Source of the DNA: Squalus acanthias
Taxonomy: Eukaryota
Assembly (NCBI GenBank): GCA_030390025.1
Contig: JASTWF010000088.1
Coordinates: forward strand, 744,001 to 808,000
Direction: 5' to 3'
DNA: 64,000 nucleotides
This document shows positions 3,001-54,023 of this stretch, piece by piece. Position 1 is the first letter of the stretch. Each line of letters begins with the position of its first letter. The notes beneath the pieces are model-generated. The model saw only the letters and a program-made list of their open reading frames with translations, ran no database searches and was not told the DNA's origin. A program made the position numbers and the translations under genes.

Positions 3001-6000
3001 GGGGTGGGGAGTTGGATGGGGTACAGTGTGTGTGAAAGGGTGGGGAGTTGGATGGGGTGCAGTGTCTGTGTAAAAGGGTGAGGAGTTAGATGGGGTACAG
3101 TGTGTGTGAAAGGGTGGGGAGTTGGATGAGGTACAGTGTGTGTGAAAGGGTGGGGAGTTGGATGGGGTACAGTGTGTGTGTGAAAGGGTGGGGAGTTGGA
3201 TGGGGGACAGTGTGTGTGTGAAAGGGTGGGGAGTTGGATGGGGTACAGTGTGTGTGAAAGGGTGCGGAGTTGGATGGGGTACAGTGTGTGAAAGGGTGGG
3301 GAGTTGGATGTGGTACAGTGTGTGTGAAAGGGTGGGGAGTTGGATGGGATATAGTGTGTGTATGAAAGGGTGGGGTGTTGGATGGGGTACAGTGTGTGTG
3401 AAAGGGTGGGGAGTTGGATGGGGTACAGTGTGTGTATGAAAGGGTGGGGAGTTGGATGGGGTACAGTGTGTGTGTGAAGGGTGGGGAGTTGGATGAGGTA
3501 CAGTGTGTGTGAAAGGGTGGGGAGTTGGATGGGGTACAGTGTGTGTGTGAAAGGGTGGGGAGTTGGATGGGGTACAGTGTGTGAAAGGGTGCGGAGTTGG
3601 ATGGGGTACAGTGTGTGAAGGGTGGGGAGTTGGATGGGGTACAGTGTGTCTGTGAGGGTGGGGAGTTGGATGGGGTACAGTGTGTGTGAAGGGTGGGGAG
3701 TTGGATGGGTACAGTGTGTGTGTGAAAGGGTGGGGAGTTGGATGGGGTACAGTGTGTGTGAAAGGGTGGGGAGTTGGATGGGGTACAGCGTGTGTGTGAA
3801 CGGGTGGGGAGTTGGATGGGGTACAGTGTGTGTGAAGGGTGGGGAGTTGGATGGGGTACAGTGTGTGTGAAAGGGTGGGGAGTTGGATGAGGTACAGAGT
3901 GTGAAAGGGTGGGGAGTTGGATGGGGTACAGTGTGTGTGAAAGGGTGGGGAGTTGGATGAGGTACAGTGTGTGAGAGGGTGGGGAGTTGGATGGGGTACA
4001 GTGTGTGTGAAAGGGTGGGGAGTTGGATGGGGTACAGTGTGTGTGAAAGGGTGGGGAGTTGGATGGGGTACAGTGTGTGTGACAGGGTGGGGAGTTGGAT
4101 GGGGTGCAGTGTGTGTGAGTGAGGGGAGTTGGATGGGGTACAGTGTGTGTGAAAGGGTGGGGAGTTGGATGGGGTACAGTGTGTGTCAGGGTGGGGAGTT
4201 GGATGGGGTACAGTGTGTGAAAGGGTGGGGAGTTGGATGGGGTACAGTGTGCGTGAAAGGGTGGGAGTTGGATGGGGTACAGTGTGTGAAAGGGTGGGGA
4301 GTTGGATGGGGTACAGTGTGTGTGAAAGGGTGGGGAGTTGGATGGGGTACAGTGTGTGTGTGAAAGGGTGGGGAGTTGGATGGGGTACAGTGTGTGTGAA
4401 AGGGTGGGGAGTTGGATGGGGTACAGTGTGTGAAAGGCTGGGGAGTTGGATGGGGTACAGTGCGTGTGAAAGGGTTGGCAGTTGGATGGGGTACAGTGTA
4501 TGTGAGAGGGTGGGGAGTTGGATGGGGTACAGTGTGTGTGTGAAAGGGTGGGGAGTTGGATGGGGTACAGTGTGTGTGAAGGGGTCGGGAGTTGGATAGG
4601 GTACAGTCTGTGTGAGGGTGGGGAGTTGGATGGGGTACAGTGTGTGAAAGGGTGGGGAGTTGGATGGGGTACAGTGTGTGAAAGGGTGGGGAGGTGGATG
4701 GGGTACAGTGTGTGTGAAAGGGTGGGGAGTTGGATGGGCTACAGTGTGTGTGAGGGTGGGGAGTTGGATGGGGTACAGTGTGTGAAAGGGTGGGAAGTTG
4801 GATGGGTTACAGTGTGTGTGAAAGGGTGGGGAGTTGGCTGGGGTACAGTGTGTGAAAGGGTGGGGAGTTGGATGGGGTACAGTGTGTGTGAAAGGGTGGG
4901 GAGTTGGATGGGGTACAGTGTGTGTGAAGGGTGGGGAGTTGGATGGGGTACAGTGTGTGTGAAGGGTGGGGAGTTGGATGGGGTACAGTGTGTGTGAAGG
5001 GTGGGGAGTTGGATGGGGTACAGTGTGTGTGAAAGGGTGGGGAGTTGGATGGGGTACAGTGTGTGTGATAGGGTGGGGAGTTGGATGGGGTACAGTGTGT
5101 GTGAAGGGTGGGGAGTTGGATGGGGTACAGTGTGTGTGAAAGGGTGGGGAGTTGGATGGGGTACAGTGTGTGTGTGAGAGGGTGGGGAGTTGGATGGGGT
5201 ACAGTGTGTGTGAAAGGGTGGGGAGTTGGATGGGGTACAGTGTGTGTGAAAGGTGGGGAGTTGGATGGGGTACAGTGTGTGTGAGAGGGTGGGGAGTTGG
5301 ATGGGGTACAGTGTGTGTGAAAGGGTGGGGAGTTGGATGGGGTACAGTGTGTGAGAGGGTGGGGAGTTGGATGGGATACAGTGTGTGTGTGCAAGGGTGG
5401 GGAGTTGGATGAGGTACAGTGTGTGTGTGAAAGGGTGGGGAGTTGGATGGGGTACAGTGTGTGTGAAGGGGTGGGGAGTTGGATGGGGTACAGTGTGTGT
5501 GAAAGGGTGGGGAGTTGGATGGGGTGCAGTGTCTGTGTAAAAGGGTGAGGAGTTAGATGGGGTACAGTGTGTGTGAAAGGGTGGGGAGTTGGATGAGGTA
5601 CAGTGTGTGTGAAAGGGTGGGGAGTTGGATGGGGTACAGTGTGTGTGTGAAAGGGTGGGGAGTTGGATGGGGGACAGTGTGTGTGAAAGGGTGGGGAGTT
5701 GGATGGGGTACAGTGTGTGTGAAAGGGTGCGGAGTTGGATGGGGTACAGTGTGTGAAAGGGTGGGGAGTTGGATGTGGTACAGTGTGTGTGAAAGGGTGG
5801 GGAGTTGGATGGGATATAGTGTGTGTATGAAAGGGTGGGGTGTTGGATGGGGTACAGTGTGTGTGTGAAAGGGTGGAGAGTTGGATGAGGTACAGTGTGT
5901 GTGTGAAAGGGTGGGGAGTTGGATGGGGTACAGTGTGTGTGTGAAAGGGTGGGGAGTTGGATGGGGTACAGTGTGTGAAAGGGTGCGGAGTTGGATGAGG

Positions 6001-8168
6001 TACAGTGTGTGAAAGGGTGGGGAGTTGGATGGGGTACAGTGTGTCTGTGAGGGTGGGGAGTTGGATGGGGTACAGTGTGTGAAAGGGTGGGGAGTTGGAT
6101 TGGGTACGGTGTGTGTGTGAGAAAGGGTGGGGAGTGGGATGGGGTACAGTGTGTGTGTGAAAGGGTGGGGAGTTGGATGGGGTACAGCGTATGTGTGAAC
6201 GGGTGGGGAGTTGGATTTGGTACAGTGTGTGAAAGGGTGGGGAGTTGGATGGGGTACAGTGTGTGTGAAAGGGTGGGGAGTTGGATGAGGTACAGAGTGT
6301 GAAAGGGTGGGGAGTTGGATGGGGTACAGTGTGTGTGAAAGGGTGGGGAGTTGGATGAGGTACAGTGTGTGAAAGGGTGGGGAGTTGGATGGGGCACAGT
6401 GTGTGTGAAAGGGTGGGGAGTTGGATGGGGTACAGTGTGTGTGAAAGGGTGGGGAGTTGGATGGGGTACAGTGTGTGTGACAGGGTGGGGAGTTGGATGG
6501 GGTACAGTGTGTGTGTGAAAGGGTGGGGAGTTGGATGGGGTACATGGTGAAAGGGTGGGGAGTTGGATGGGGTACAGTGTGTGTGAAAGGGTGGGGAGTT
6601 GGATGGGATACAGTGTGTGTGAAAGGGTGGGGAGTTGGATGGGGTACAGTGTGTGTGAGGGTGGGGATTTGGATGGGGTACAGTGTGTGAAAGGGTGGGG
6701 AGTTGGATGGGGTACAGTGTGTGTGAAAGGGTGGGGAGTTGGATGGGGTACAGTGTGTGTGAAAGCGGGGAGTTGGATGGGGTACAGTGTGTGTCAGGGT
6801 GGGGAGTTGGATGGGGTACAGTGTGTGAAAGGGTGGGGAGTTGGATGGGGTACAGTGTGCGTGAAAGGGTGGGAGTTGGATGGGTACAGTGTGTGTGAAA
6901 GGGTGGGGAGTTGGATGGGGTACAGTGTGTGTGAAAGGGTGGGGAGTTGGATGGGGTACAGTGTGTGTGTGAAAGGGTGGGGAGTTGGATGGGGTACAGT
7001 GTGTGTGAGAAAGGGTGGGGAGTTGGATGGGGTACAGTGTGTGTGTGAGAAGGGTGGGGAGTTGGATGGGGTACAGTGTGTGTGAAAGGGTGGGGAGTTG
7101 GATGGGGTACAGTGTGTGTGTGAAATGGTGGGGAGTTGGATGAGGTACAGTGTGTGTGTGTGTGTGAAAGGGTGGGGAGTTAGATGGGGTACAGTGTGTG
7201 TGTGAAAGGGTGGGGAGTTGGATGGGGTATAGTGTGTGAAAGGGTGGGGAGTTGGATGGGGTACAGTGTGTGTGAAAGAGTGGGGAGTTGGATGGGGTAC
7301 AGTGTGTGTGAAAGAGTGGGGAGTTGGATGGGGTACAGTGTGTGTGTGAGGGTGGGGAGTTGGATGGGGTACGGTGTGTGAAAGGGTGGGGAGTTGGATG
7401 GGGTACAGTGTGTGTGAAAGGGTGGGGAGTTGGATGGGGTACTGTGTGTGTGAAAGGGTGGGGAGTTGGATGGGGTACTGTGTGTGTGTGAAAGTGTGGG
7501 GAGTTGGATGGGGTACAGTGTATGTGACAGGGTGGGGAGTTGGATGGGGTACAGTGTGTGTGTGAAAGGGTGGAGAGTTGGATGGGGTACAAGGTGAAAG
7601 GGTGGGGAGTTGGATGGGGTACAGTGTGTGTGAAAGGGTGGGGAGTTGGATGGGGTACAGTGTGTGTGAAAGGGTGGGGAGTTGGATGGGGTACAGTGTG
7701 TGTGTGAGAGGGTGGGGAGTTGGATGGGGTACAGTGTGTGAAAGGGTGGGGAGTTGGATGGGGTACAGTGTATGTGAGAGGGTGGGGAGTTGGATGGGGT
7801 ACAGTGTATGTGACAGGGTGGGGAGTTGGATGGGGTACAGTGTGTGTGTGAAAGGGTGGGGAGTTGGATGGGGTACAGTGTATGTGAGAGGGTGGGGAGT
7901 TGGATGGGGTACAGTGTATGTGACAGGGTGGGGAGTTGGATGGGGTACAGTGTGTGTGTGAAAGGGTGGAGAGTTGGATGGGGTACAAGGTGAAAGGGTG
8001 GGGAGTTGGATGGGGTACAGTGTGTGTGAAAGGGTGGGGAGTTGGATGGGGTACAGTGTGTGTGAAAGGGTGGGGAGTTGGATGGGGTACAGTGTGTGTG
8101 TGAGAGGGTGGGGAGTTGGATGGGGTACAGTGTGTGAAAGGGTGGGGAGTTGGATGGGGTATAGTGTG
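1..8168 (+). repeat. G-rich satellite, ~35-bp unit (GT)nGAA(A)GGGTGGGGAGTTGGATGGGGTACA, left of the LTR element
   Basis: Uninterrupted tandem units; length varies about 33-38 bp through the (GT)n and GA(A/G)n segments; runs off the left edge of the window. Confidence 0.98.
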
Positions 8169-8383
8169 TGACGTAATAAAGACTCACTACGCACTTGAAC
8201 ATAAAGCAAGGCTTTAATCAACTTGTAACAAAACATGGAGGTCTAGTCAGCAGTCACTAGCTTCCTGTTTCCAGATTCTCTCTCCCCAAGGTGGGCCCAT
8301 GCCTGAGTATTTATACTCCCTGGACGGCGCCCCAGCTGGCCACCCAGTAGTACTTCCTGAGTTGTTACTTGCGATTTATGACA
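8169..8383 (-). repeat. 3' LTR (215 bp)
   Basis: Minus strand reads TGTCATAAAT...TTACGTCA; direct repeat of 12464-12678 with 7 substitutions by manual alignment. Confidence 0.96.
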
Positions 8384-8395
8384 TTCTTCCTCCCT
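8384..8395 (-). other. Polypurine tract (AGGGAGGAAGAA)
   Basis: All-purine 12-mer on the minus strand directly abutting the 3' LTR. Confidence 0.9.
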
Positions 8396-8421
8396 GAAAG
8401 GTTTGGAAGTCCAGTCTTCCT

Positions 8422-11400
8422 TTAACGGACTAGGCGGACCAGAAATATCCGCAGACGTTTAGCTCTCTGCTTGTGACTGGAAGGCACGTCTCCCCGGACC
8501 GTGTCCTGGTCCCTGGGTCGCTTGGCCCGTACCGGTAAGTCAGTAGAGTCCGCGTCATCTTGATCATCCTGCGGAGGACTGGGAATATCATGACTCCGGG
8601 TGCGGGTCCCCACAGGTGCTGAGCTGGCCTCATCCCGGGTCGTGGCTGGAGATTGTCCGGCGTCCTGGTTTCGGGTGGCCATCCTACGGGGAGCGTCCAG
8701 CTCCCTGAGTTGATCCGGTAGCGTTGCCAGCAGATCCCCCGATGTCCCAGGCGGTGCGTCATTTTCATAGGGGTGCGGAGTGTTGATATCATTGTCGGGG
8801 GATCCTTCATCATTCGGGCCCGTGTGCCCGGTTGGGCAGGGAGCCAGATCTCGGAGCGAGACGGTGGTCTCCCGGCCATCAGGGTACCGTACGTGCGCAT
8901 ACGTGGGGTTTACCTCCGTTAACTCCACCTCGTCAACGAGAGGGTCGTTTTTGGCAGACCGGACGAACCTCCGGAGTAGTACCGGGCCTGGAGCCACCAA
9001 CCATGACGGTAGAGACGTCCCATGTGTAGAGCGACGCCGGAATTTGAAGAATCGCTCATGAGGCGTGACAGTAGTAGATGTGGAGAGAAGAGACCTGATA
9101 GAGTGTAACGCGTCGGGGAGCACCGTTTCCCACTGCTGGTCCGGCAGGTTGCGTGACCTTAGTGCCAGACGGACAGCGTTCCAGATGATGGCATTGTATC
9201 GTTCAACCTGTCCGTTACCGATTGGGTGATATGGTGTCGTCCTACTTGAGGCGATTCCCCGTTGGGAGAGATAACTTTTAAGTTCACTCGACATAAAGGA
9301 GGGACCCCGATCCGTGTGGATAAAATTGGCCGTCCCGCAAAGGGAAAAGACCTGATCGAGGCATTTAATTACCGTAGAGGTAAGCATATTAGGGCAGGGG
9401 AAGGCGAAGGGAAAGCGTGAATACTCGTCCACCATCGTAAGTAGGTAGGTGTTCCTTGTCGACGAAGGCAATGGCCCTTTAAAGTCTATGCTGAGCCTCT
9501 GCATAGGCTGCATTGCATGTATGAGTAAGCCATCTGATGGGCGAAAGAATTGTGGTTTCAATTCTGCACAAATCCTACAGGAGGAGCATGTTTTCTTTAC
9601 GTCCTCGGTTGAAAATGGTAGATTTTTGGAGCGCACAAAGTGCAACATGCGGGTCACACCAGGATGGCATACGTCCATATGCAAATCCGCCAGAGTCGAC
9701 GTTGACATTGAGGAGCAAAATGCCCGTGTGAAGGTATCTGGGGCCACGTTCTGTTTGCCGGGTCGGTAACAGATAGTATATCCAAAGGCAGCCAGTTCCA
9801 TCCTCCAGAGTTGAATTTTATTATTTTTGATTTTCGTGCGCCTCCGGTTATCCAACATGAAGGCCACAGAGCGCTGGTCAGTTATAAGCGTAAAATGACG
9901 CCGAGCAAGAAAATGACCCCATTGGCGTACAGCCTCGATGATGGCCGTAGCCTCCTTCTCGACGGGGGGGTAATGGAGCTCGCTACCCTGCAAGGTTCTG
10001 GATAGGAATGCCACGGGTCGGCCACCTTGATTCAAGGTAGCGGAGATCGCCACCTCCGATGCATCGCATTCGACCACAAAAGGAAGATTTTCGTCAATGG
10101 AGCGAAGCGTGGCTTTCTCCAGCTGTCGTTTGAGGAGGTTGAAGGCAGAAATAGCCGTAGCTTCCAATGGAAAAGACTTCGCATGGAGCAGGGGCTGTAT
10201 TTTATCGGAGAAGTGTGGTATCCATTTTGCGTAATAAGCAAACATGCCAAGTGCCCGACGAAGAGAGCCGAGGTTCGTCGGGGGAGGGAGCTCCTGAAGT
10301 GGACGAAGTCGCTCTGGGTCCGGTTTAATAACACCGTTGCCCACCCAGTAGCCAAGAATGTTCACCGATGGCACCGACTTCACCGATTTGGATTCGTTTA
10401 ACGTTAAGTGGCGACGGCGGAGTACGTCAAAAAATCTCTGAAGATTGGCGTCATGCTCCTTTTGATCATGGCCGGCAATAGTGATATTGTCTAAATACGG
10501 AAAGGTATCCGTCAAGTTCTCTTGCCGGACTAGGCCATCCATGGCCCGTTGGAAGACGGCCACCCCATTGGTGACCCCGAATGGAAGGCGGCGAAACTGG
10601 AAAAGCCGACCATTGGCCTCAAAGGCCGTATACTTCTTGTCGGAGTCTTGCAGTGGCACCTGATGGTACGCGCTTTTTAAATCGAAGGTCGAGAATACCT
10701 TGTATTTGGCAAGGTTGTTGACCATGTCATCTATGCGTGTCAGCGGGTAGGCATCCAGATCGGTATATAGATTAATAGTCTGCGAATAATCGATACACAG
10801 ACGTTTTTTATGTTGTTTTAAGGGATTCCTCACGATGACGACCTGAGCCCGCCAGGGAGATGAACATGGCTCGATAATACCGTCGACTAAAAGGCGAGAG
10901 ATTTCCGCCTCAATAAACGCTCGATCGTCTTGGCTAAAGCGCCGCGATTTGGTGGCTATGGGTTTACAGCGGGGGGGAAGATTGGCAAACAGGGAGGGTT
11001 CACCGAGTAAGGCCGCCGAGAGTGCACAAAACGGCACCTTAGAAATGGTAAGCTCCGGCCTTGACCCTCCAAACTCAAAAGTGATCTTCTTGTGCTGCTT
11101 CTGGAAGTCCTGTCCCAGAAGCACATCGCTGCATAAGTTTGCGAGTACTCCGAGCCGGGTGGAGAGATACGTGCGGCCGTTGAGGATGAGGTTGACCAGA
11201 CAGAAGCCAGAAGAATTGGTGGTCAGAGTCGTCAGAGCCATTGCAATCTCCCTGTCCGAGGGATAAATGTGCAGTTTTAACCTGTTGACAGCCCGCTTAC
11301 TAATGAAGCTGTCAGAGCTGCAGGAGTCAATTAGCGCGCTTAGAGTGTGCCCATTTACTGAAACCTTCGTGGCTGCATGGGACAAACTTTGGGGAAAAAC

Positions 11401-12363
11401 AGCCGTGATGGGAGGAGGGGCAATTTTCCCTTCGGCAACTGTAGCCTTAACAGTAGTTCTTGGGGGAGGAGCAGCTCCATAGATAGCAGCTGTGAAGCTA
11501 ACAGGAGCTCTTGACCTGTATACTTTAGAGGAGCGGCCTTTCTTGTTAGCAAAGGCCCGTGACTGGCATACCTTGGAAAAGTGTCCTTTCTTGCTGCAAT
11601 GATTGCAGGTCACATTACGAGCCGGGCAAAATTTTCTGTGATGGCACGCCCCTCCACAAAAGAAACACTTTCTTCCTGATTGCCAGGATGCTGCTAGGGC
11701 GGGGTCGTCATCAGCGAAGGCCTCTAGGGTAGGGTCGTCGTCTGTTAGAGTAGAGTCAACATCAGTGGGGGCATCCGCCCGAGACCTACCGAAAGACTCA
11801 TTAAAGGAGATAGCCGCCGCCCGTGCACGTGGTGGGAGATAAGTGTCTGCATTTTTCTTGGCCAAGTCCAAGGAACACGCCTGGTCATAAGCAGCCCGTA
11901 AATTGAGGGTTTTATTTTCCAGCAGGCGCTGACGTATAAAAGGGGACGCGATTCCATTGATAAAGGAATCGCGGATTAGTTCCTCTTGATACTGTTCAGC
12001 TGAAACTGCTTTAAGGTTACAATCCTTGCTGAGCCTGCGAAGTTTCTGGAGAAATTCATCGAGTGATTCCCCAGGCTGCTGCCGAGTTGTGGCCAGTAGG
12101 TGTCGAGCAAAGATTTCATTTGGGGACTTGACATATAGCTGCTGTAAGATTTCGATAGCAGTGTCATAGTCTATACAGTCCTCAATATAATCATACACAT
12201 GAGGAGACACGTAGTTGATAAGCATTCGTAACTTATTAGGGACATCCGCCCCACATTCTTCAAGAAAGTTGCTAAAGGTACGAAACCAATGCTTCCATAC
12301 CTTTGCTGCCGCAGGTGCATTCGGGTCCAGGTCGAGACGAGCGGGTCTAAGGAGTTTTTCCAT
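8422..12363 (-). CDS. Gag-Pol polyprotein, 1313 aa (gag with two CCHC knuckles, aspartic protease, RT, RNase H, integrase)
   Basis: CFFCGGACHHRKFC and CNHCSKKGHFSKVC knuckles; LIDSCSS protease; RT motifs LCIDY, FDLKSAYHQ, LPFGVTNG, YLDN; RNase H CDAS/EKEA/TDQ; integrase H-H-C-C and SIDFKGP/HTDRG/GQVER. Confidence 0.96.
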   Translation of the reverse strand: MEKLLRPARLDLDPNAPAAAKVWKHWFRTFSNFLEECGADVPNKLRMLINYVSPHVYDYIEDCIDYDTAIEILQQLYVKSPNEIFARHLLATTRQQPGESLDEFLQKLRRLSKDCNLKAVSAEQYQEELIRDSFINGIASPFIRQRLLENKTLNLRAAYDQACSLDLAKKNADTYLPPRARAAAISFNESFGRSRADAPTDVDSTLTDDDPTLEAFADDDPALAASWQSGRKCFFCGGACHHRKFCPARNVTCNHCSKKGHFSKVCQSRAFANKKGRSSKVYRSRAPVSFTAAIYGAAPPPRTTVKATVAEGKIAPPPITAVFPQSLSHAATKVSVNGHTLSALIDSCSSDSFISKRAVNRLKLHIYPSDREIAMALTTLTTNSSGFCLVNLILNGRTYLSTRLGVLANLCSDVLLGQDFQKQHKKITFEFGGSRPELTISKVPFCALSAALLGEPSLFANLPPRCKPIATKSRRFSQDDRAFIEAEISRLLVDGIIEPCSSPWRAQVVIVRNPLKQHKKRLCIDYSQTINLYTDLDAYPLTRIDDMVNNLAKYKVFSTFDLKSAYHQVPLQDSDKKYTAFEANGRLFQFRRLPFGVTNGVAVFQRAMDGLVRQENLTDTFPYLDNITIAGHDQKEHDANLQRFFDVLRRRHLTLNESKSVKSVPSVNILGYWVGNGVIKPDPERLRPLQELPPPTNLGSLRRALGMFAYYAKWIPHFSDKIQPLLHAKSFPLEATAISAFNLLKRQLEKATLRSIDENLPFVVECDASEVAISATLNQGGRPVAFLSRTLQGSELHYPPVEKEATAIIEAVRQWGHFLARRHFTLITDQRSVAFMLDNRRRTKIKNNKIQLWRMELAAFGYTICYRPGKQNVAPDTFTRAFCSSMSTSTLADLHMDVCHPGVTRMLHFVRSKNLPFSTEDVKKTCSSCRICAELKPQFFRPSDGLLIHAMQPMQRLSIDFKGPLPSSTRNTYLLTMVDEYSRFPFAFPCPNMLTSTVIKCLDQVFSLCGTANFIHTDRGPSFMSSELKSYLSQRGIASSRTTPYHPIGNGQVERYNAIIWNAVRLALRSRNLPDQQWETVLPDALHSIRSLLSTSTTVTPHERFFKFRRRSTHGTSLPSWLVAPGPVLLRRFVRSAKNDPLVDEVELTEVNPTYAHVRYPDGRETTVSLRDLAPCPTGHTGPNDEGSPDNDINTPHPYENDAPPGTSGDLLATLPDQLRELDAPRRMATRNQDAGQSPATTRDEASSAPVGTRTRSHDIPSPPQDDQDDADSTDLPVRAKRPRDQDTVRGDVPSSHKQRAKRLRIFLVRLVR

Positions 12364-12463
12364 GATGGATCAGTTTCTTGCCCAAGTTCCCTTCTGTGGT
12401 TCGAGTTGCAGCTGGTTGTTCCGAATCACCCAAAGCGTGGAGACGATATCAAGTTGATTAAAT

Positions 12464-12678
12464 TGACGTAATAAAGACTCACTACGCACTTGAACATAAA
12501 GCAAGGCTTTAATCAACTTGTAACAAAACATGGAGGTCCAGTTAGCAGTCACTAGCTTCCTGTTTCCAGATTGTCTCAACCCAAGGTGGGCCCATGCCTG
12601 AGTATTTATACTCCCTGAACGGCGCCCCAGCTGGCCACCCAGTAGTACTTCCTGAGTTGTGACTTGCGATTTATGACA
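12464..12678 (-). repeat. 5' LTR (215 bp)
   Basis: Direct repeat of 8169-8383; minus strand has TATAAAT near 12605-12611 and ATTAAA at 12508-12513. Confidence 0.96.
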
Positions 12679-15600
12679 GTGTGTGTGAAAGGGTGGGGAG
12701 TTGGATGGGGTACAGTGTGTGTGAGGGTGGGGATTTGGATGGGGTACAGTGTGTGAAAGGGTGGGGAGTTGGATGGGGTACAGTGTGTGAAAGGGTGGGG
12801 AGTTGGATGGGGTGCAGTGTGTTTGAAAGGGTGGGGAGTTGGATGGGGTACAGTGTGTGTGAGGGTGGGGAGTTGGATGGGGTACAGTGTGTGAAAGGGT
12901 GGGGAGTTGAATGTGGTACAGTGTGTGTGAAAGGGTGGGGAGTTGGATGGGGTACAGTGTGTGTGAAGGGGTGGGGAGTTGGATGGGGTACAGTGTGTGT
13001 GAGTGAGGGGAGTTGGATGGGGTACAGTGTGTGTGAAAGGGTGGGGAGTTGGATGGGGTACAGTGTGTGTGAGGGTGGGGAGTTGGATGGGGTACAGTGT
13101 GTGAAAGGGTGGGGAGTTGGATGGGGTACAGTGTGTGTGAAAGGGTGGGGAGTTGGATGGGGTACAGTGTGTGAAAGGGTGGGGAGTTGGATGGGGTACA
13201 GTGTGTGTGAAAGGGTGGGGAGTTGGATGGGATACTGTGTGGGTGAAAGGGTGGGGAGTTGGATGGGGTACAGTGTGTGTGTGTGAGGGTGGGGAGTTGG
13301 ATGGGGTACAGTGTGTGTGAAAGGGTGGGGAGTTGGATGGGGTGCAGTGTTTGTGTAAAAGGGTGGGGAGTTAGATGGGGTACAGTGTGTGTGAAAGGGT
13401 GGGGAGTTGGATGGGGTACAGTGTGTGTGAAGGGTGGGGAGTTGGATGGGGTACAGTGTGTGTGTGAGGGTGGGGAGTTGGATGGGGTACAGTGTGTGTG
13501 AAGGGTGGGGAGTTGGATGGGGTACAGTGTGTGTGAAGGGTGGGGAGTTGGATGGGGTACAGTGTGTGTGAAGGGTGGGGAGTTGGATGGGGTACAGTGT
13601 GTGTGAGAGGGTGGGGAGTTGGATGGGGTACAGTGTGTGTGAAGGGTGGGGAGTTGGATGGGGTACAGTGTGTGTGAAGGGTGGGGAGTTGGATGGGGTA
13701 CAGTGTGTGTGAAGGGTGGGGAGTTGGATGGGGTACAGTGTGTGTGAAGGGTGGGGAGTTGGATGGGGTACAGTGTGTGTGAAGGGTGGGGAGTTGGATG
13801 GGGTACAGTGTGTGTGAAGGGTGGGGAGTTGGATGGGGTACAGTGTGTGTGAGGGGTGGGGAGTTGGATGGGGTACAGTGTGTGAAAGGGTGGGGAGTTG
13901 GATGGGGTACAGTGTGTGTGAAAGGGTGGGGAGTTGGATGGGGTACAGTGTGTGTGAAGGGTGGGGAGTTGGATGGGGTACAGTGTGTGTGAAGGGTGCG
14001 GAGTTGGATGGGGTACAGTGTGTGTGAAGGGTGTGGAGTTGGATGGGGTACAGTGTGTGTTGAAGGGTGGGGAGTTGGATGGGGTACAGTGTGTGTATGA
14101 AGGGTGGGGAGTTGGATGGGGTACAGTGTGTGTAAGGGTGGGAGTTGGATGGGGTACAGTGTGTGTGTGAAGGGTGGGGAGTTGGATGGGGTACAGTGTG
14201 TGTGAAAGGGTGGGGAGTTGGATGGGGTACAGTGTGTGTGAAAGGGTGGGAGTTGGATGGGGTACAGTGTGTGAAGGGTGGGGAGTTGGATGGGGTACAG
14301 TGTGTGTGTAAGGGTGGGGAGTTGGATGGGGTACAGTGTGTGTGAAGGGTGGGGAGTTGGATGGGGTACAGTGTGTGTGAAGGGTGGGGAGTTGGATGGG
14401 GTACAGTGTGTGTGAAGGGTGGGGAGTTGGATGGGGTACAGTGTGTGTGAGGGTGGGGAGTTGGATGGGGTACAGTGTGTGTGAAGGGTGGGGAGTTGGA
14501 TGGGGTACAGTGTGTGTGAGGGTGGGGAGTTGGATGGGGTACAGTGTGTGTGTGAGGGTGGGGAGTTGGATGGGGTACAGTGTGTGTGAGAGGGTGGGGA
14601 GTTGGATGGGGTACAGTGTGTGTGAAAGGGTGGGGAGTTGGATGGGGTACAGTGTGTGAGAGGGTGGGGAGTTGGATGGGGTACAGTGTGTGTGTGAAGG
14701 GTGGGGAGTTGGATGGGGTACAGTGTGTGTGAGAGGGTGGGGAGTTGGATGGGGTACAGTGTGTGTGTGAGGGTGGGGAGTTGGATGGGGTACAGTGTGT
14801 GAGAGGGTGGGGAGTTGGATGGGGTACAGTGTGTGTGAAGGGTGGGGAGTTGGATGGGGTACAGTGTGTGTGAAGGGTGGGGAGTTGGATGGGGTACAGT
14901 GTGTGTGAAGGGTGGGGAGTTGGATGGGGTACAGTGTGTGTGAGAGGGTGGGGAGTTGGATGGGGTACAGTGTGTGTGAAGGGTGGGGAGTTGGATGGGG
15001 TACAGTGTGTGTGAAAGGGTGGGGAGTTGGATGGGGTACAGTGTGTGTGAGGGTGGGGAGTTGGATGGGGTACAGTGTGTGTGAAGGGTGGGGAGTTGGA
15101 TGGGGTACAGTGTGTGTGAAGGGTGGGGAGTTGGATGGGGTACAGTGTGTGTGAAAGGGTGGGGAGTTGGATGGGGTACAGTGTGTGTGAGAGGGTGGGG
15201 AGTTGGATGGGGTACAGTGTGTGTGAGGGTGGGGAGTTGGATGGGGTACAGTGTGTGTGAAAGGGTGGGGAGTTGGATGGGGTACAGTGTGTGTGAGAGG
15301 GTGGGGAGTTGGATGGGGTACAGTGTGTGTGTGAGGGTGGGGAGTTGGATGGGGTACAGTGTGTGAAGGGTGGGAGTTGGATGGGGTACAGTGTGTGTGA
15401 AGGGTGGGGAGTTGGATGGGGTACAGTGTGTGTGAGGGTGGGGAGTTGGATGGGGTACAGTGTGTGTGAAGGGTGGGGAGTTGGATGGGGTACAGTGTGT
15501 GTGAAGGGTGGGGAGTTGGATGGGGTACAGTGTGTGTGAAGGGTGGGGAGTTGGATGGGGTACAGTGTGTGTGAGGGTGGGGAGTTGGATGGGGTACAGT

Positions 15601-18600
15601 GTGTGTGAGAGGGTGGGGAGTTGGATGGGGTACAGTGTGTGTGAGAGGGTGGGGAGTTGGATGGGGTACAGTGTGTGTGAGGGTGGGGAGTTGGATGGGG
15701 TACAGTGTGTGTGAAGGGTGGGGAGTTGGATGGGGTACAGTGTGTGTGAAGGGTGGGGAGTTGGATGGGGTACAGTGTGTGTGAGGGTGGGGAGTTGGAT
15801 GGGGGTACAGTGTGTGTGAGAGGGTGGGGAGTTGGATGGGGTACAGTGTGTGTGTGAGGGTGGGGAGTTGGATGGGGTACAGTGTGTGTGAAAGGGGTGG
15901 GAGTTGGATGGGGTACAGTGTGTGTGAGGGTGGGGAGTTGGATGGGGTACAGTGTGTGTGTGAGGGTGGGGAGTTGGATGGGGTACAGTGTGTGTGAAAG
16001 GGTGGGGAGTTGGATGGGGTACAGTGTGTGTGAGGGTGGGGAGTTGGATGGGGTACAGTGTGTGTGAAGGGTGGGGAGTTGGATGGGGTACAGTGTGTGT
16101 GAAGGGTGGGGAGTTGGATGGGGTACAGTGTGTGTGAGAGGGTGGGGAGTTGGATGGGGTACAGTGTGTGTGAAGGGTGGGGAGTTGGATGGGGTACAGT
16201 GTGTGTGAAGGGTGGGGAGTTGGATGGGGTACAGTGTGTGTGAGAGGGTGGGGAGTTGGATGGGGTACAGTGTGTGTGAAGGGTGGGGAGTTGGATGGGG
16301 TACAGTGTGTGTGAAGGGTGGGGAGTTGGATGGGGTACAGTGTGTGTGAGGGTGGGGAGTTGGATGGGGTACAGTGTGTGTGAGGGTGGGGAGTTGGATG
16401 GGGTACAGTGTGTAGGTGAAGGGTGGGGAGTTGGATGGGGTACAGTGTGATGTGAGGGTGGGGAGTTGGATGGGGTACAGTGTGTGTGAAGGGTGGGGAG
16501 TTGGATGGGGTACAGTGTGTGTGAAGGGTGGGGAGTTGGATGGGGTACAGTGTGTGTGAAGGGTGGGGAGTTGGATGGGGTACAGTGTGTGTGAGGGTGG
16601 GGAGTTGGATGGGGTACAGTGTGTGTGAGAGGGTGGGGAGTTGGATGGGGTACAGTGTGTGTGAGGGTGGGGAGTTGGATGGGGTACAGTGTGTGGGTGA
16701 AGGGTGGGGAGTTGGATGGGGTACAGTGTGTGAAGGGTGGGGAGTTGGATGGGGTACAGTGTGTGTGAAAGGGTGGGGAGTTGGATGGGGTACAGTGTGT
16801 GTGAAAGGGTGGGGAGTTGGATGGGGTACAGTGTGTGTGAAAGGGTGGGGAGTTGGATGGGGTACAGTGTGTGTGAGGGTGGGGAGTTGGATGGGGTACA
16901 GTGTGTGTGAAAGGGTGGGGAGTTGGATGGGGTACAGTGTGTGTGAAGGGTGGGGAGTTGGATGGGGTACAGTGTGTGTGAAGGGTGGGGAGTTGGATGG
17001 GGTACAGTGTGTGTGAGGGTGGGGAGTTGGATGGGGTACAGTGTGTGTGAAAGGGTGGGGAGTTGGATGGGGTACAGTGTGTGTGAATGGGTGGGGAGTT
17101 GGATGGGGTACAGTGTGTGAAAGGGTGGGGAGTTGGATGGGGTACAGTGTGTGTGAAGGGGTGGGGAGTTGGATGGGGTACAGTGTGTGTGAGGGTGGGG
17201 AGTTGGATGGGGTACAGTGTGTGTGAAAGGGTGGGGAGTTGGATGGGGTACAGTGTGTGTGAAGGGTGGGGAGTTGGATGGGGTACAGTGTGTGTGAAGG
17301 GTGGGGAGTTGGATGGGGTACAGTGTGTGTGAAGGGTGGGGAGTTGGATGGGGTACAGTGTGTGTGAGGGTGGGGAGTTGGATGGGGTACAGTGTGTGTG
17401 AAAGGGTGGGGAGTTGGATGGGGTACAGTGTGTGTGAAGGGTGGGGAGTTGGATGGGGTACAGTGTGTGTGAAGGGTGGGGAGTTGGATGGGGTACAGTG
17501 TGTGTGAGGGTGGGGAGTTGGATGGGGTACAGTGTGTGTGAAAGGGTGGGGAGTTGGATGGGGTACAGTGTGTGTGAAGGGTGGGGAGTTGGATGGGGTA
17601 CAGTGTGTGTGAAGGGTGGGGAGTTGGATGGGGTACAGTGTGTGTGAAGGGTGGGGAGTTGGATGGGGTACAGTGTGTGTGAAGGGTGGGGAGTTGGATG
17701 GGGTACAGTGTGTGTGAAGGGTGGGGAGTTGGATGGGGTACAGTGTGTGTGAAGGGTGGGGAGTTGGATGGGGTACAGTGTGTGTGAGAGGGTGGGGAGT
17801 TGGATGGGGTACAGTGTGTGTGAAGGGTGGGGAGTTGGATGGGTACAGTGTGTGTGAAGGGTGGGGAGTTGGATGGGGTACAGTGTGTGTGAGAGGGTGG
17901 GGAGTTGGATGGGGTACAGTGTGTGTGAAGGGTGGGGAGTTGGATGGGGTACAGTGTGTGTGAGAGGGTGGGGAGTTGGATGGGGTACAGTGTGTGTGAA
18001 GGGTGGGGAGTTGGATGGGGTACAGTGTGTGTGAAGGGTGGGGAGTTGGATGGGGTACAGTGTGTGTGAAGGGTGGGGAGTTGGATGGGGTACAGTGTGT
18101 GTGAGGGTGGGGAGTTGGATGGGGTACAGTGTGTGTGAAGGGTGGGGAGTTGGATGGGGTACAGTGTGTGTGAAGGGTGGGGAGTTGGATGGGGTACAGT
18201 GTGTGTGAAGGGTGGGGAGTTGGATGGGGTACAGTGTGTGTGAAGGGTGGGGAGTTGGATGGGGTACAGTGTGTGTGAAGGGTGGGGAGTTGGATGGGGT
18301 ACAGTGTGTGTGAAAGGGTGGGGAGTTGGATGGGGTACAGTGTGTGTGAAGGGTGGGGAGTTGGATGGGGTACAGTGTGTGTGAAGGGTGGGGAGTTGGA
18401 TGGGGTACAGTGTGTGTGAAGGGTGGGGAGTTGGATGGGGTACAGTGTGTGTGAAGGGTGGGGAGTTGGATGGGGTACAGTGTGTGTGAAGGGTGGGGAG
18501 TTGGATGGGGTACAGTGTGTGTGAAAGGGTGGGGAGTTGGATGGGGTACAGTGTGTGTGTGAAGGGTGGGGAGTTGGATGGGGTACAGTGTGTGTGAAGG

Positions 18601-21600
18601 GTGGGGAGTTGGATGGGGTACAGTGTGTGTGTGAGGGTGGGGAGTTGGATGGGGTACAGTGTGTGTGAGGGTGGGGAGTTGGATGGGGTACAGTGTGTGT
18701 GAGGGTGGGGAGTTGGATGGGGTACAGTGTGTGTGAGGGTGGGGAGTTGGATGGGGTACAGTGTGTGTGAAGGGTGGGGAGTTGGATGGGGTACAGTGTG
18801 TGTGAGAGGGTGGGGAGTTGGATGGGGTACAGTGTGTGTGAGGGTGGGGAGTTGGATGGGGTACAGTGTGTGTGAGGGTGGGGAGTTGGATGGGGTACAG
18901 TGTGTGTGAGAGGGTGGGGAGTTGGATGGGGTACAGTGTGTGTGAGAGGGTGGGGAGTTGGATGGGGTACAGTGTGTGTGAGGGTGGGGAGTTGGATGGG
19001 GTACAGTGTGTGTGAGGGTGGGGAGTTGGATGGGGTACAGTGTGTGTGAGGGTGGGGAGTTGGATGGGTACAGTGTGTGTGAGAGGGTGGGGAGTTGGAT
19101 GGGGTACAGTGTGTGTGAAGGGTGGGGAGTTGGATGGGGTACAGTGTGTGTGAAGGGTGGGGAGTTGGATGGGGTACAGTGTGTGTGAGAGGGTGGGGAG
19201 TTGGATGGGGTACAGTGTGTGTGAAGGGTGGGGAGTTGGATGGGGTACAGTGTGTGTGAAGGGTGGGGAGTTGGATGGGGTACAGTGTGTGTGAAGGGTG
19301 GGGAGTTGGATGGGGTACAGTGTGTGTGAAGGGTGGGGAGTTGGATGGGGTACAGTGTGTGTGAAGGGTGGGGAGTTGGATGGGGTACAGTGTGTGTGAA
19401 GGGTGGGGAGTTGGATGGGGTACAGTGTGTGTGAAGGGTGGGGAGTTGGATGGGGTACAGTGTGTGTGAAGGGTGGGGAGTTGGATGGGGTACAGTGTGT
19501 GTGAAGGGTGGGGAGTTGGATGGGGTACAGTGTGTGTGTGAGGGTGGGGAGTTGGATGGGGTACAGTGTGTGTGAAGGGTGGGGAGTTGGATGGGGTACA
19601 GTGTGTGTGAGGGTGGGGAGTTGGATGGGGTACAGTGTGTGTGAGGGTGGGGAGTTGGATGGGGTACAGTGTGTGTGAAGGGTGGGGAGTTGGATGGGGT
19701 ACAGTGTGTGTGAGGGTGGGGAGTTGGATGGGGTACAGTGTGTGTGAAGGGTGGGGAGTTGGATGGGGTACAGTGTGTGTGAGGGTGGGGAGTTGGATGG
19801 GGTACAGTGTGTGTGAAGGGTGGGGAGTTGGATGGGGTACAGTGTGTGTGAAGGGTGGGGAGTTGGATGGGGTACAGTGTGTGTGAAGGGTGGGGAGTTG
19901 GATGGGGTACAGTGTGTGTGTGAGGGTGGGGAGTTGGATGGGGTACAGTGTGTGTGAAGGGTGGGGAGTTGGATGGGGTACAGTGTGTGTGAGGGTGGGG
20001 AGTTGGATGGGGTACAGTGTGTGTGAAGGGTGGGGAGTTGGATGGGGTACAGTGTGTGTGAAGGGTGGGGAGTTGGATGGGGTACAGTGTGTGTGAAGGG
20101 TGGGGAGTTGGATGGGGTACAGTGTGTGTGTGAAGGGTGGGGAGTTGGATGGGGTACAGTGTGTGTGAAGGGTGGGGAGTTGGATGGGGTACAGTGTGTG
20201 TGAGAGGGTGGGGAGTTGGATGGGGTACAGTGTGTGTGAAGGGTGGGGAGTTGGATGGGGTACAGTGTGTGTGAAGGGTGGGGAGTTGGATGGGGTACAG
20301 TGTGTGTGAAAGGGTGGGGAGTTGGATGGGGTACAGTGTGTGTGAAGGGTGGGGAGTTGGATGGGGTACAGTGTGTGTGAAGGGTGGGGAGTTGGATGGG
20401 GTACAGTGTGTGTGAGAGGGTGGGGAGTTGGATGGGGTACAGTGTGTGTGAGGGTGGGGAGTTGGATGGGGTACAGTGTGTGTGAAGGGTGGGGAGTTGG
20501 ATGGGGTACAGTGTGTGTGAAGGGTGGGGAGTTGGATGGGGTACAGTGTGTGTGTGAAGGGTGGGGAGTTGGATGGGGTACAGTGTGTGTGAAAGGGTGG
20601 GGAGTTGGATGGGGTACAGTGTGTGTGAAGGGTGGGGAGTTGGATGGGGTACAGTGTGTGTGAGGGTGGGGAGTTGGATGGGGTACAGTGTGTGTGAAGG
20701 GTGGGGAGTTGGATGGGGTACAGTGTGTGTGAAGGGTGGGGAGTTGGATGGGGTACAGTGTGTGTGAAGGGTGGGGAGTTGGATGGGGTACAGTGTGTGT
20801 GAGGGTGGGGAGTTGGATGGGGTACAGTGTGTGTGAAAGGGTGGGGAGTTGGATGGGGTACAGTGTGTGTGAAGGGTGGGGAGTTGGATGGGGTACAGTG
20901 TGTGTGAAGGGTGGGGAGTTGGATGGGGTACAGTGTGTGTGAAAGGGTGGGGAGTTGGATGGGGTACAGTGTGTGTGAAGGGTGGGGAGTTGGATGGGGT
21001 ACAGTGTGTGTGAAGGGTGGGGAGTTGGATGGGGTACAGTGTGTGTGTGAAGGGTGGGGAGTTGGATGGGGTACAGTGTGTGTGTGAAAGGGTGGGGAGT
21101 TGGATGGGGTACAGTGTGTGTGAAGGGTGGGGAGTTGGATGGGGTACAGTGTGTGTGAGAGGGTGGGGAGTTGGATGGGGTACAGTGTGTGTGAAGGGTG
21201 GGGAGTTGGATGGGGTACAGTGTGTGTGAGAGGGTGGGGAGTTGGATGGGGTACAGTGTGTGTGAAAGGGTGGGGAGTTGGATGGGGTACAGTGTGTGTG
21301 AAGGGTGGGGAGTTGGATGGGGTACAGTGTGTGTGAAAGGGTGGGGAGTTGGATGGGGTACAGTGTGTGTGAAGGGTGGGGAGTTGGATGGGGTACAGTG
21401 TGTGTGAAAGGGTGGGGAGTTGGATGGGGTACAGTGTGTGTGAAAGGGTGGGGAGTTGGATGGGGTACAGTGTGTGTGAGAGGGTGGGGAGTTGGATGGG
21501 GTACAGTGTGTGTGAAAGGGTGGGGAGTTGGATGGGGTACAGTGTGTGTGAAGGGTGGGGAGTTGGATGGGGTACAGTGTGTGTGAGGGTGGGGAGTTGG

Positions 21601-24600
21601 ATGGGGTACAGTGTGTGTGAAAGGGTGGGGAGTTGGATGGGGTACAGTGTGTGTGAAGGGTGGGGAGTTGGATGGGGTACAGTGTGTGTGAAAGGGTGGG
21701 GAGTTGGATGGGGTACAGTGTGTGTGAAAGGGTGGGGAGTTGGATGGGGTACAGTGTGTGTGAAAGGGTGGGGAGTTGGATGGGGTACAGTGTGTGTGAA
21801 AGGGTGGGAGTTGGATGGGGTACAGTGTGTGTGAAGGGTGGGGAGTTGGATGGGGTACAGTGTGTGTGAAAGGGTGGGGAGTTGGATGGGGTACAGTGTG
21901 TGTGAAGGGTGGGGAGTTGGATGGGGTACAGTGTGTGTGAAGGGTGGGGAGTTGGATGGGGTACAGTGTGTGTGTGAAAGGGTGGGGAGTTGGATGGCGT
22001 ACATTGTGTGTGTGAAAGGGTGGGGTGTTAGATGGGGTACAATATGGGTGGGGATTTGGATGGGGTACAGTGTGTGAGAGGGTGGGGAGTTGGATGGGGT
22101 ACAGTGTGTGTGAAAGGGTGGGGAGTTGGATGGGGAACAATGTATGTGAGAGGGTGGGACGTTGGATGGGCTACAGTGTGTATGAAAGGGTGGGGAGTTG
22201 GATGGGGTACAGTGTGTGTGAAAGGGTGGGGAGTTGGATGGGGAACAATGTGTGTGAGAGGGTGGGACGTTGGATGGGCTACAGTGTGTATGAAAGGGTG
22301 AGGAGTTGGATGGGGTACAGTGTGTGTGAAAGGGTGGGGAGTTGGATGGGGAACAGTGTGTGTGAAAGGGTGGGGAGTTGGATGGGGTACAGTGTGTGTG
22401 AAAGGGTGGGGAGTTGGATGGTGCACAGTGTCTGTAAAAGGGTGGGGAGTTGGATGGTGTACAGTGCCTGTAAAAGGGTGGGGAGTTGGATGGGGTACAG
22501 TGTGTGTGAAAGGGTGGGGAGTTGGATGGGGTACAGTGTGTGTGTGAAGGGTGGGGAGTTGGATGGGGTACAGTGTGTGTATGAAAGGGTAGGGAGTTAG
22601 ATGGGTTACAGTGTGTGTGAAAGGGTGGGGAGTTGGATGGGGAGCAGTGTGTGTGTGAGAGGTGGGTAGTTGATGGGGTACAGTGTGTGTGAAAGGGTGG
22701 GGAGTTGGATGTGGTACAGTGTGTGTGAGTGTGGGGAGTTGGATGGGGTACAGTGTGTGTGTGAGTGTGGGGAGTTGGATGGGGTACAGTGTGTGTGAAA
22801 GGGTGGGGAGTTGGATGGGGTACAGTGTGTGTGAGAGGGTGGGGAGTTGGATGGGGTACAGTGTGTGTGAAGGGTGGGGAGTTGGATGGGTACAGTGTGT
22901 GTGTGAAAGGGTGGGGAGTTGGATGGGGTACAGTGTGTGTGAGGGTGGGGAGTTGGATGGGGTACAGTGTGTGTGAAGGGTGGGGAGTTGGATGGGGTAC
23001 AGTGTGTATGAGGGTGGGGAGTTGGATGGGGTACAGTGTGTGTGAAAGGGTGGGGAGTTGGATGGGGTACAGTGTGTGTGAAGGGTGGGGAGTTGGATGG
23101 GGTACAGTGTGTGTGAAGGGTGGGGAGTTGGATGGGGTACAGTGTGTGTGAAAGGGTGGGGAGTTGGATGGGGTACAGTGTGTGTGAGAGGGTGGGGAGT
23201 TGGATGGGGTACAGTGTGTGTGAAGGGTGGGGAGTTGGATGGGGTACAGTGTGTGTGTGAAGGGTGGGGAGTTGGATGGGGTACAGTGTGTGTGAAGGGT
23301 GGGGAGTTGGATGGGGTACAGTGTGTGTGAAGGGTGGGGAGTTGGATGGGGTACAGTGTGTGTGAAGGGTGGGGAGTTGGATGGGGTACAGTGTGTGTGA
23401 AGGGTGGGGAGTTGGATGGGGTACAGTGTGTGTGAAGGGTGGGGAGTTGGATGGGGTACAGTGTGTGTGAAGGGTGGGGAGTTGGATGGGGTACAGTGTG
23501 TGTGAAGGGTGGGGAGTTGGATGGGGTACAGTGTGTGTGTGAAGGGTGGGGAGTTGGATGGGGTACAGTGTGTGTGAAGGGTGGGGAGTTGGATGGGGTA
23601 CAGTGTGTGTGAGGGTGGGGAGTTGGATGGGGTACAGTGTGTGTGAGAGGGTGGGGAGTTGGATGGGGTACAGTGTGTGTGAAAGGGTGGGGAGTTGGAT
23701 GGGGTACAGTGTGTGTGAAGGGTGGGGAGTTGGATGGGGTACAGTGTGTGTGTGAAGGGTGGGGAGTTGGATGGGGTACAGTGTGTGTGAAGGGTGGGGA
23801 GTTGGATGGGGTACAGTGTGTGTGTGAAGGGTGGGGAGTTGGATGGGGTACAGTGTGTGTGAAGGGTGGGGAGTTGGATGGGGTACAGTGTGTGTGAAAG
23901 GGTGGGGAGTTGGATGGGGTACAGTGTGTGTGAAGGGTGGGGAGTTGGATGGGGTACAGTGTGTGTGAGAGGGTGGGGAGTTGGATGGGGTACAGTGTGT
24001 GTGAAGGGTGGGGAGTTGGATGGGGTACAGTGTGTGTGAAGGGTGGGGAGTTGGATGGGGTACAGTGTGTGTGAAGGGTGGGGAGTTGGATGGGGTACAG
24101 TGTGTGTGAAAGGGTGGGGAGTTGGATGGGGTACAGTGTGTGTGAAGGGTGGGGAGTTGGATGGGGTACAGTGTGTGTGAGAGGGTGGGGAGTTGGATGG
24201 GGTACAGTGTGTGTGAGGGTGGGGAGTTGGATGGGGTACAGTGTGTGTGAAGGGTGGGGAGTTGGATGGGGTACAGTGTGTGTGAGGGTGGGGAGTTGGA
24301 TGGGGTACAGTGTGTGTGAGGGTGGGGAGTTGGATGGGGTACAGTGTGTGTGTGAAGGGTGGGGAGTTGGATGGGGTACAGTGTGTGTGAAGGGTGGGGA
24401 GTTGGATGGGGTACAGTGTGTGTGAAGGGTGGGGAGTTGGATGGGGTACAGTGTGTGTGAAGGGTGGGGAGTTGGATGGGGTACAGTGTGTGTGAAGGGT
24501 GGGGAGTTGGATGGGGTACAGTGTGTGTGAAGGGTGGGGAGTTGGATGGGGTACAGTGTGTGTGTGAAGGGTGGGGAGTTGGATGGGGTACAGTGTGTGT

Positions 24601-32185: not shown

Positions 32186-32535
32186 ACTGTTGGAGGAGGA
32201 TGGTGTGGTCAACCGTGTCAAAGTCTGCAGACAGGTCAAGAAAGTGAGGAGGGACAGTTTACCACGGTCACAGTCACATGGATTGTCATTTGTGACTTTG
32301 ATAAGGGCCGTTTCAGTGCTGTGTCACGGGCGGAAACCTGATTGGAGGGGTTCAAACATGGAGTTGCGGAAAAGATGGGCACGGATTCGGAAGACGACAA
32401 CACGTTCAAGGACTTGAGAGAGGAAAGGGAGGTTGGAGATGGGGCGGTAGTTTGCAAGGACAGAGGGGTCAAGGGTGGGTTTTTTGAGGAAGAGGGTTGA
32501 TGACGGCAGATTTGACAGGGAGGGGGACAGGAGCT
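32186..32535 (-). mobile_element. L2/CR1-group LINE reverse-transcriptase fragment
   Basis: Minus frame reads LKKPTLDPSVLANYRPISNLPFLSQVLERVV...LQSGFRP, then DHTILL; degenerate and truncated. Confidence 0.85.
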
Positions 32536-44706: not shown

Positions 44707-44709
44707 AGA

Positions 44710-53700: not shown

Positions 53701-54023
53701 TTGGATCGGGTGGTGTGAGTTGGATCGGGTGGTGTGAGTGGGATCGGGTGGTGTGTGTTGGATCGGGTGGTGTGAGTCTGGATCGGGTGGTGTGAGTTGG
53801 ATCGGGTGGTGTGAGAGGGATCGGGTGGTGTGAGTGGATCGGGTGGTGTGAGTTGGATCGGGTGGTGTGAGCTGGATCGGGGTGGTGTGAGCGGGATCGG
53901 GTGGTGTGAGTTGGATCGGGTGGTGTGAGTGGGATCGGGTGGTGTGAGTGGATCGGGTGGTGTGAGGGGATCGGGTGGTGTGAGCTTGGATCGGGTGGTG
54001 TGAGTTGGATCGGGTGGTGTGAG
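44710..54023 (+). repeat. 19-bp satellite GGGTGGTGTGAG(TT/TG/CG/CT)GGATC
   Basis: About 490 tandem units running up to the assembly gap. Confidence 0.98.

Follow-up and report, generated by a model that had tools for sequence, protein, structure and literature searches.

A Ty3/gypsy retrotransposon within a satellite array

The window, by which we mean the whole 64,000-nucleotide stretch of Squalus acanthias DNA analysed here, carries on its minus strand a 4510-bp LTR retrotransposon (12678-8169) that is inserted into, and surrounded by, an array of a 35/36-bp satellite (1..27276). The 5' LTR (12464..12678) and the 3' LTR (8169..8383) are both 215 bp long, are bounded by TG...CA and share 208 of 215 bases. 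The insertion is flanked by a 5-bp target-site duplication, CACAC, with its upstream copy at 12679..12683 and its downstream copy at 8164..8168, although this boundary is less certain because the satellite is CA-rich. Between the LTRs lies a single intact gag-pol reading frame of 1313 aa (8422..12363, minus strand) that comprises gag with two CCHC knuckles, protease, reverse transcriptase (RT, with the active site YLDN), RNase H and integrase, and a polypurine tract (8384..8395) adjoins the 3' LTR. The TG..CA LTR pair, the target-site duplication, the polypurine tract and the domain order gag-PR-RT-RH-IN, with integrase after RNase H, are marks of Ty3/gypsy elements (Metaviridae), and the best solved-structure match of the protein is Ty3 Gag-Pol (E 9e-54). 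We assign the element to the Ty3/gypsy LTR retrotransposons.

The seven differences between the two LTRs all fall within the first 140 nt, and the last 75 nt, which include the pairing segment described below, are identical in the 5' and 3' copies. Divergence between the LTRs (3.3%) exceeds the ~0.5% by which the internal region, with its intact reading frame, differs from contigs of public sequencing runs; the LTR pair may be chimeric in origin. A variant LTR (12464-12545), with a change in the pairing segment at 12515 and a 4-base insertion, is present in record 8 of run X1, a record that does not extend to the primer-binding site. The window holds three long satellite arrays in all, the others having units of 19 bp (44708-54023) and 73 bp (54524-64000); G-rich strand skew is strong in the first two, and the motif GAGTTGGAT is common to the 19-bp and 36-bp units. 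A LINE-type RT frame of 496 aa (33399-34886, minus strand; Pfam RVT_1, E 2e-37), which we take to be CR1-like and hence suggestive of a vertebrate host, and a second RT fragment among minisatellites (32327-32480, minus strand) also lie in the window.

The primer-binding site position is complementary to the element's own LTR

The position at which a primer-binding site (PBS) would be expected follows the 5' LTR after a single spacer base (A, 12463) and reads TTTAATCAACTTG on the minus strand (12462-12450). It lacks the TGG start of a tRNA-primed site and is the exact complement of a segment of the LTR at 12520-12508, hereafter the arm, from which it is separated by 45 nt. The first-pass annotation had drawn attention to this arrangement, and its absent TGG, perfect 13-nt own-LTR complement, one-base spacer and 45-nt loop were all reproduced from the coordinates. 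When the LTR was shuffled 20,000 times with its dinucleotides preserved, no anchored match of at least 13 arose (best 12). Within the window the 13-mer was found three times at up to one mismatch, namely in both LTRs (the 3' copy at 8225-8213) and at the PBS position, against 0.04 occurrences expected.

The arm ends in a potential polyadenylation signal, ATTAAA (12513-12508), and the loop between arm and PBS contains a predicted 9-bp hairpin at the U5 end (12466..12487) that appears in both the minimum-free-energy (MFE) and the centroid fold and resembles a U5 inverted repeat. The 13-bp stem itself was present in the MFE and centroid structures of a folded 91-nt region (z -2.7, with 5 of 200 shuffles at least matching it). 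A 141-nt fold kept the stem but was no more stable than its shuffles (z 0.04). A short hairpin just after the arm, of the kind seen in some relatives, is absent from the window copy. Upstream, a TATA-like box, TATAAATA (12603..12610), begins 90 nt before the arm, roughly the 85 nt given in the first-pass annotation.

Arm and PBS pair and covary throughout a clade of relatives

A protein search in which 8000 candidates were scored yielded 726 homologues with E<=1e-50. The best 120 of these 726 are nearly all 50-69% identical to the window protein, and those with names, known from protein only, come from Palaemon, Trichuris, Caligus, Clavelina, Xenia, Actinostola and Armadillidium, the tunicate (Clavelina) homologues among the matches listed being 52-54% identical. 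Matches in the ESM Atlas were gag-like clusters without names and gave no clade name, and viral contigs held no relatives by protein, alignment or DNA pattern. DNA of relatives was taken from the 80 best of 511 confirmed metagenome loci and from nine contigs in GTDB genomes, and is evidently eukaryotic. The GTDB genomes labelled bacterial (L084-L089; G001-G003) contain more than 100 matches to eukaryotic retrotransposon RTs (126 in G001 and 151 in G003), pointing to host contamination.

Among these 89 loci and the window, a gag start was present in 37 elements; the DNA upstream was too short in three of them, and four (L027, L059, L077 and L079) lacked a recognisable junction motif despite their gag start, leaving 30 that were scored. 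The LTR end was set by an LTR pair in 17 of the 30 and by a short motif, which is partly circular, in the other 13; the junction of L003 was placed manually, and L074 was assigned a 2-nt spacer. Clustering at 75% identity gave 20 sequence clusters, window included.

Of the 30 scored elements, counting the window, 25 carry an anchored, fully matched complement of 10-18 bp, and the remaining five (L009, L010, L036, L049 and L065) showed one or two mismatches or one G-U within positions 1-13; in L049 the 3' LTR copy of the arm pairs with the PBS at 16 of 16 positions. Scanning the remaining 60 loci brought in L023, L037, L054 and L083 (11-15 bp), and L011, read from two contig ends, pairs over 12 bp. 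These five added relatives, which come from collapsed contig ends, pair over 11-15 bp and include the most distant relative (39% identity). A 10-bp match in L087 lay ~3 kb upstream of the RT match and was dropped as chance. The 1-nt spacer recurs in nearly all relatives, LTRs are ~150-230 bp long in most paired copies, the distance from arm to LTR end ranges from 23 to 69 nt, and purine runs like the window's polypurine tract precede the LTR in 12 pattern-matched relatives, of which L036 is doubtful. In L011 the LTR at the 3' end carries an (ATT)n microsatellite expansion before the arm.

Pairing was Watson-Crick at each of positions 1-13 in at least 18 of 20 clusters, at positions 14, 15 and 16 in 12, 10 and 12 clusters respectively, and at positions 17-20 in only 4-5; in the L008 family it extends up to 19 positions with one mismatch. 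The paired bases themselves differ between clusters, with two to four pair types at each of positions 4-13. At positions 5-13, each arm paired with its own PBS at 0.967, compared to 0.582 for cross pairs, and none of 100,000 permutations reached the own-pair value, in a test that ignores kinship and with a register picked by best pairing. Compensatory changes occur both on separate branches and between close relatives (L003 versus L004/L005, 81-84% identical). The window element shares its 13-nt arm and PBS with the distant L012 family, the LTRs of the two being otherwise unlike. The first-pass annotation had named a pairing that is neither conserved nor accompanied by compensatory change in relatives as grounds for giving up its reading; across the 20 clusters the 13-bp pairing is conserved and is accompanied by compensatory changes. 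We conclude that the arm:PBS pairing is a real and deeply conserved feature of the whole clade.

These data also bear on the idea that the complementarity arose by chance or through misassembly. The 13-mer is AT-rich and the element sits inside a satellite array, which would favour such an origin; however, the shuffles did not reproduce the match, the same layout recurs in 34 relatives from independent assemblies, and contigs of three public runs cross the arm-to-PBS junction of the window element. Chance complementarity is refuted by the relatives, and the two origins together are scarcely credible.

Self-pairing is confined to one branch of the sampled elements

As a control, we analysed 40 regions around other RT matches from two assemblies that hold relatives. 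A flanking direct-repeat pair was found at 30 of 44 control RT places, and TGG occurred within 10 nt of the repeat in 23 of these 30, one of them (L127) in a doubtful repeat; among the seven that lack TGG, several appear to be mis-called repeats. None of the 30 repeat-flanked control elements contained a self-complement of at least 10 bp (maximum 9). In a quick maximum-likelihood tree of 54 RT-RH rows, made without L046, L079 and L087 (too little RT) and with an outgroup from two assemblies only, 25 in-clade sequences were split from 29 others with an SH-aLRT value of 100. The tRNA-primed controls, which are unnamed and only presumed to include Mag, form a separate branch and are ~30-35% identical to the clade in RT-RH. 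Thus, since self-pairing is absent from all 30 controls and the split is fully supported, the trait follows one clade.

The register and substitution pattern of the pairing suggest a primer

The first-pass annotation had proposed two readings of the hairpin: tRNA-independent self-priming, or a device that masks polyadenylation in the 5' LTR. Several features of the clade bear on this choice. The pairing register places the 3' end of the arm opposite the base next to the LTR end, which is the register of a primer. TGG starts none of the scored PBS sequences, and the window copy shows what is expected of self-primers, that is, a PBS 0-5 nt after the LTR, without TGG, and with an LTR complement of at least 10 nt (13 bp here). 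G-U pairs are nearly absent from the arm:PBS helix (1 of 234 pairs) and frequent in the enclosed predicted hairpins (33 of 204; Fisher p 5e-11), a control made up of hairpins that are themselves predicted and lie in T-rich sequence. G-U is also the first pair of the small hairpin directly behind the arm in 5 of 14 cases, and a short hairpin at this place with a loop of at most 10 nt is found in only 10 of 20 clusters. In L007, which is 97.7-99.0% identical to four sister elements, one arm change is present in both LTRs together with the complementary change in the PBS. In L009, an arm change is likewise present in both LTRs, and the PBS is unchanged.

The position of the arm within the LTR is also informative about where transcription might begin. 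Only 32 nt of LTR precede the arm in L054 and 42 nt in L037, and TATA-like boxes lie at -22 (L054) and at -26/-24 (L037) from the arm, both in AT-rich DNA. A perfect TATAWAWR upstream of the arm was found in one of 20 clusters, the window alone. The TATA box of the window copy would place the transcription start ~60 nt ahead of the arm and counts against a start at the arm; the caveat that the first-pass annotation attached to this distance is nevertheless weak, as the box is peculiar to this copy. Priming is favoured over a purely structural hairpin because of the near-absence of G-U pairs, the co-change in L007 and the TATA and short-LTR data. Together, the covariation, geometry and apparent co-conversion strongly support the first of the two readings, and we regard Tf1-like self-priming with a primer of ~13 nt and no tRNA as probable on these comparative grounds.

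A variant of self-priming would differ in how the primer is made, with transcription beginning further upstream (in this copy, at the TATA box) and a primer that is longer or released by internal cutting, or with an arm supplied by the 3' LTR or a second RNA. The perfect TATAAATA 90 nt before the window arm, the presence of the arm in both LTRs and the extended pairing of some families, up to that of L008, are each consistent with one of these routes. However, the TATA box is not conserved (1/20), the LTR upstream of the arm in L054 and L037 is only 32-42 nt long, and pairing drops at ~13-16 positions throughout the clade, which fits a primer whose 5' end is fixed. We therefore consider these routes unlikely.

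The second reading of the first-pass annotation, in which the hairpin mainly hides the 5' LTR poly(A) signal and priming proceeds by another, unrecognised route, draws on the sequence of the arm. A canonical AATAAA or ATTAAA lies in the arm of 12 of 20 clusters and three further PBS sequences imply ATTAAA; moreover, the terminal TAAA-like bases of the arm are nearly invariant and the stem is formed by the 5' copy only. Yet perfect pairing of 13-16 bp is retained without a canonical hexamer in L002-L005 and L008, that is, in five of 20 clusters and two lineages of the tree; L002 and L004 have a canonical signal outside the arm, downstream of it, and L046 and L084 have a second one there. Furthermore, a masking stem would tolerate G-U pairs and need not begin one base after the LTR end, and it would leave the element without a primer. 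Masking as the sole role is rejected, since arms without the hexamer still pair and no primer is supplied, and masking as the main purpose, with priming by another route, is very unlikely. It may be a side effect or benefit in most members, those 12 of 20 clusters with a canonical hexamer in the arm, and is at most secondary.

A host RNA could also bind the PBS, either a tRNA fragment or another small RNA, with the LTR arm as its copy or mimic. Half-tRNA primers are described in copia lineages (PMC6317226), and the tRNA-gene look-up, which found no tRNA gene, covers the 64-kb window alone. Against this, TGG starts are absent, and positions 4-13 vary widely between clusters, tracking each element's own LTR and not one shared sequence. 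In addition, the segment 12300-12700 has no tRNA-like Rfam match at E<=10, its only match being a sub-threshold one to a lncRNA. A tRNA 3' end as primer is rejected on the absence of TGG from every scored PBS, and a host RNA of any kind appears highly improbable.

A proposed model of self-priming and its implications

In the self-priming model that we favour, transcription would begin at the arm or immediately upstream of it (~12520), with the distant TATA box left unused, and the 5' end of the RNA would fold back to pair with the PBS. RNase H, which is present as a domain of the window protein, would then cut after 12508, and the freed 3'-OH would prime minus-strand DNA synthesis across the remaining 45 nt. 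The primer would be copied into plus-strand DNA and the PBS thereby rewritten in later rounds, while the ATTAAA of the 5' copy could be masked as a possible side effect. The Tf1 RNA anneals to its PBS through its first 11 bases and is cleaved by RNase H between bases 11 and 12 (PMC7175516). A leader-to-loop duplex like that of the Tf1 'pretzel' was not found (own 4.20 versus permuted 4.19).

The strict Watson-Crick pairing would be accounted for if the primer served to rewrite the PBS. Copying of the primer into plus-strand DNA is described for retroviruses (PMC7472051), and the co-change in L007, a single event, is hypothetically what such copying would produce. L009 fits an intermediate stage, but it is also a counter-example to rewriting. 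According to one review, Ty1 and Ty3 do not copy the primer but inherit their PBS (PMC7472051), so that rewriting does not apply across this family. We therefore treat PBS rewriting as conjectural, because of the unchanged PBS in L009 and the inherited PBS of Ty1 and Ty3. Natural variants such as L007 versus L012, and L009, make it testable from genomes alone.

In its broadest form, our proposal is that tRNA-free priming arose independently in an undescribed, animal-wide, non-chromoviral Ty3/gypsy clade, in which the ~13 first bases would serve at once as transcription start, primer and hidden poly(A) signal, and in which the PBS would be rewritten in each round so that one mutation could reach both LTRs and the PBS. 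We offer this combination tentatively, as a plausible whole of which some part may rather be expected to fail.

If self-priming holds, the clade, whose proteins occur in crustaceans, nematodes, cnidarians and tunicates among the matches listed, would stand for tRNA-free priming that either arose once more or was retained from early on, and it would bear on the proposal that hairpin priming is older than tRNA priming (PMC3601003). Fragments of tRNA 3' ends silence elements through the PBS (PMC7472051), and we suggest that self-primers would escape this silencing. Annotation that filters for a tRNA-based PBS would miss such elements.

Comparison with known systems

Self-priming is established for Tf1 and has been implicated from fungi to vertebrates within the Tf1/sushi group (PMC4600332, PMC10085805); it is also predicted for plant Tcn1 and the copia lineage TAR (PMC6317226). 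In these sources it is treated as a mark of Tf1/sushi chromoviruses, plus one predicted copia lineage (PMC10085805, PMC6317226). Among the full-text papers searched, there was no report of self-priming in a non-chromoviral animal clade, and motif searches of the literature texts returned no clade name. Large non-Mag clades, among them MolGy of molluscs and annelids, have been reported (PMC6238403, PMC8556966), and the term PBS has no occurrence in the main text of these two surveys.

Outside the Ty3/gypsy elements, the TAR lineage (Ty1/copia) resembles the window element in having no tRNA PBS and predicted self-primers; the prediction there rests on a stretch of at least 10 bp that begins 0-5 bp beyond the LTR and is complementary to it, as is also found in the window element, whereas TAR itself belongs to the copia superfamily (PMC6317226). 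Fungal GalEa elements, also of the copia superfamily, likewise have no tRNA PBS, but the hairpin of their Conserved Hairpin Site is wholly internal and not complementary to the LTR (PMC5445492).

Within Ty3/gypsy, the Mag lineage (clades A, B and C) was suggested by the first-pass annotation, which called the gag Mag-like. The two CCHC knuckles fit this description, as do the ILG-type protease motif, the lack of a chromodomain and of env, the short LTRs (PMC3601003) and, among the matches listed, relatives named in marine invertebrates. However, inspection of the window protein by eye does not reveal the GxV/I motif of Mag, and at the place of this motif D/E-P-x-V/I-D/E-x-V stands in 77 of 121 proteins (the window protein and the best 120 of 726 homologues). 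The RT-RH identity of only ~30-35% to the tRNA-primed elements sampled further weakens the likeness. Cigr-1 of Ciona intestinalis, a branch 2 element compared by description only, is alike in having two CCHC knuckles, in the loss of GPY/F and in the absence of a chromodomain, which are mostly negative features; its protease flap is listed as TANG, and no such motif was seen in the window protein.

The closest parallels in mechanism are Tf1 and Tf2 of Schizosaccharomyces pombe, Tj1 of S. japonicus, other Tf1/sushi elements including vertebrate sushi, and plant Tcn1, which likewise have no tRNA site, carry a PBS just after the 5' LTR that is complementary to a segment of the LTR in the same register, and share the Ty3/gypsy domain order (PMC7175516, PMC4600332, PMC10085805, PMC6317226). 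The primer is 11 nt long in Tf1 (PMC7175516) compared to the ~13 nt predicted here. In contrast to the Tf1/sushi group, this clade has neither a chromodomain match nor GP[YF]: as the first-pass annotation had stated, no chromodomain is visible in the window protein (Pfam, E<=1), none appears in the Pfam labels of the best 120 of 726 homologues, and GP[YF] is found in the last 300 residues of none of the same 121 proteins. Among these 121 (homologues again the best 120 of 726), 97 have two CCHC knuckles, where Tf1 has none and the V-clade one (PMC2774666, supplement 3), and 92 have the RT active site YxDN, not YxDD (residues 621-626 of P0001). Furthermore, the Tf1 pretzel consists of three duplexes (PMC10085805), whereas this clade shows predicted hairpins inside the loop instead, its LTRs are short, and its predicted primer usually holds a poly(A) hexamer. 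Self-priming thus likely extends to a clade that appears to fall outside the group known for it. The clade looks non-chromoviral, and it probably works like Tf1 while not being a member of the Tf1/sushi group.
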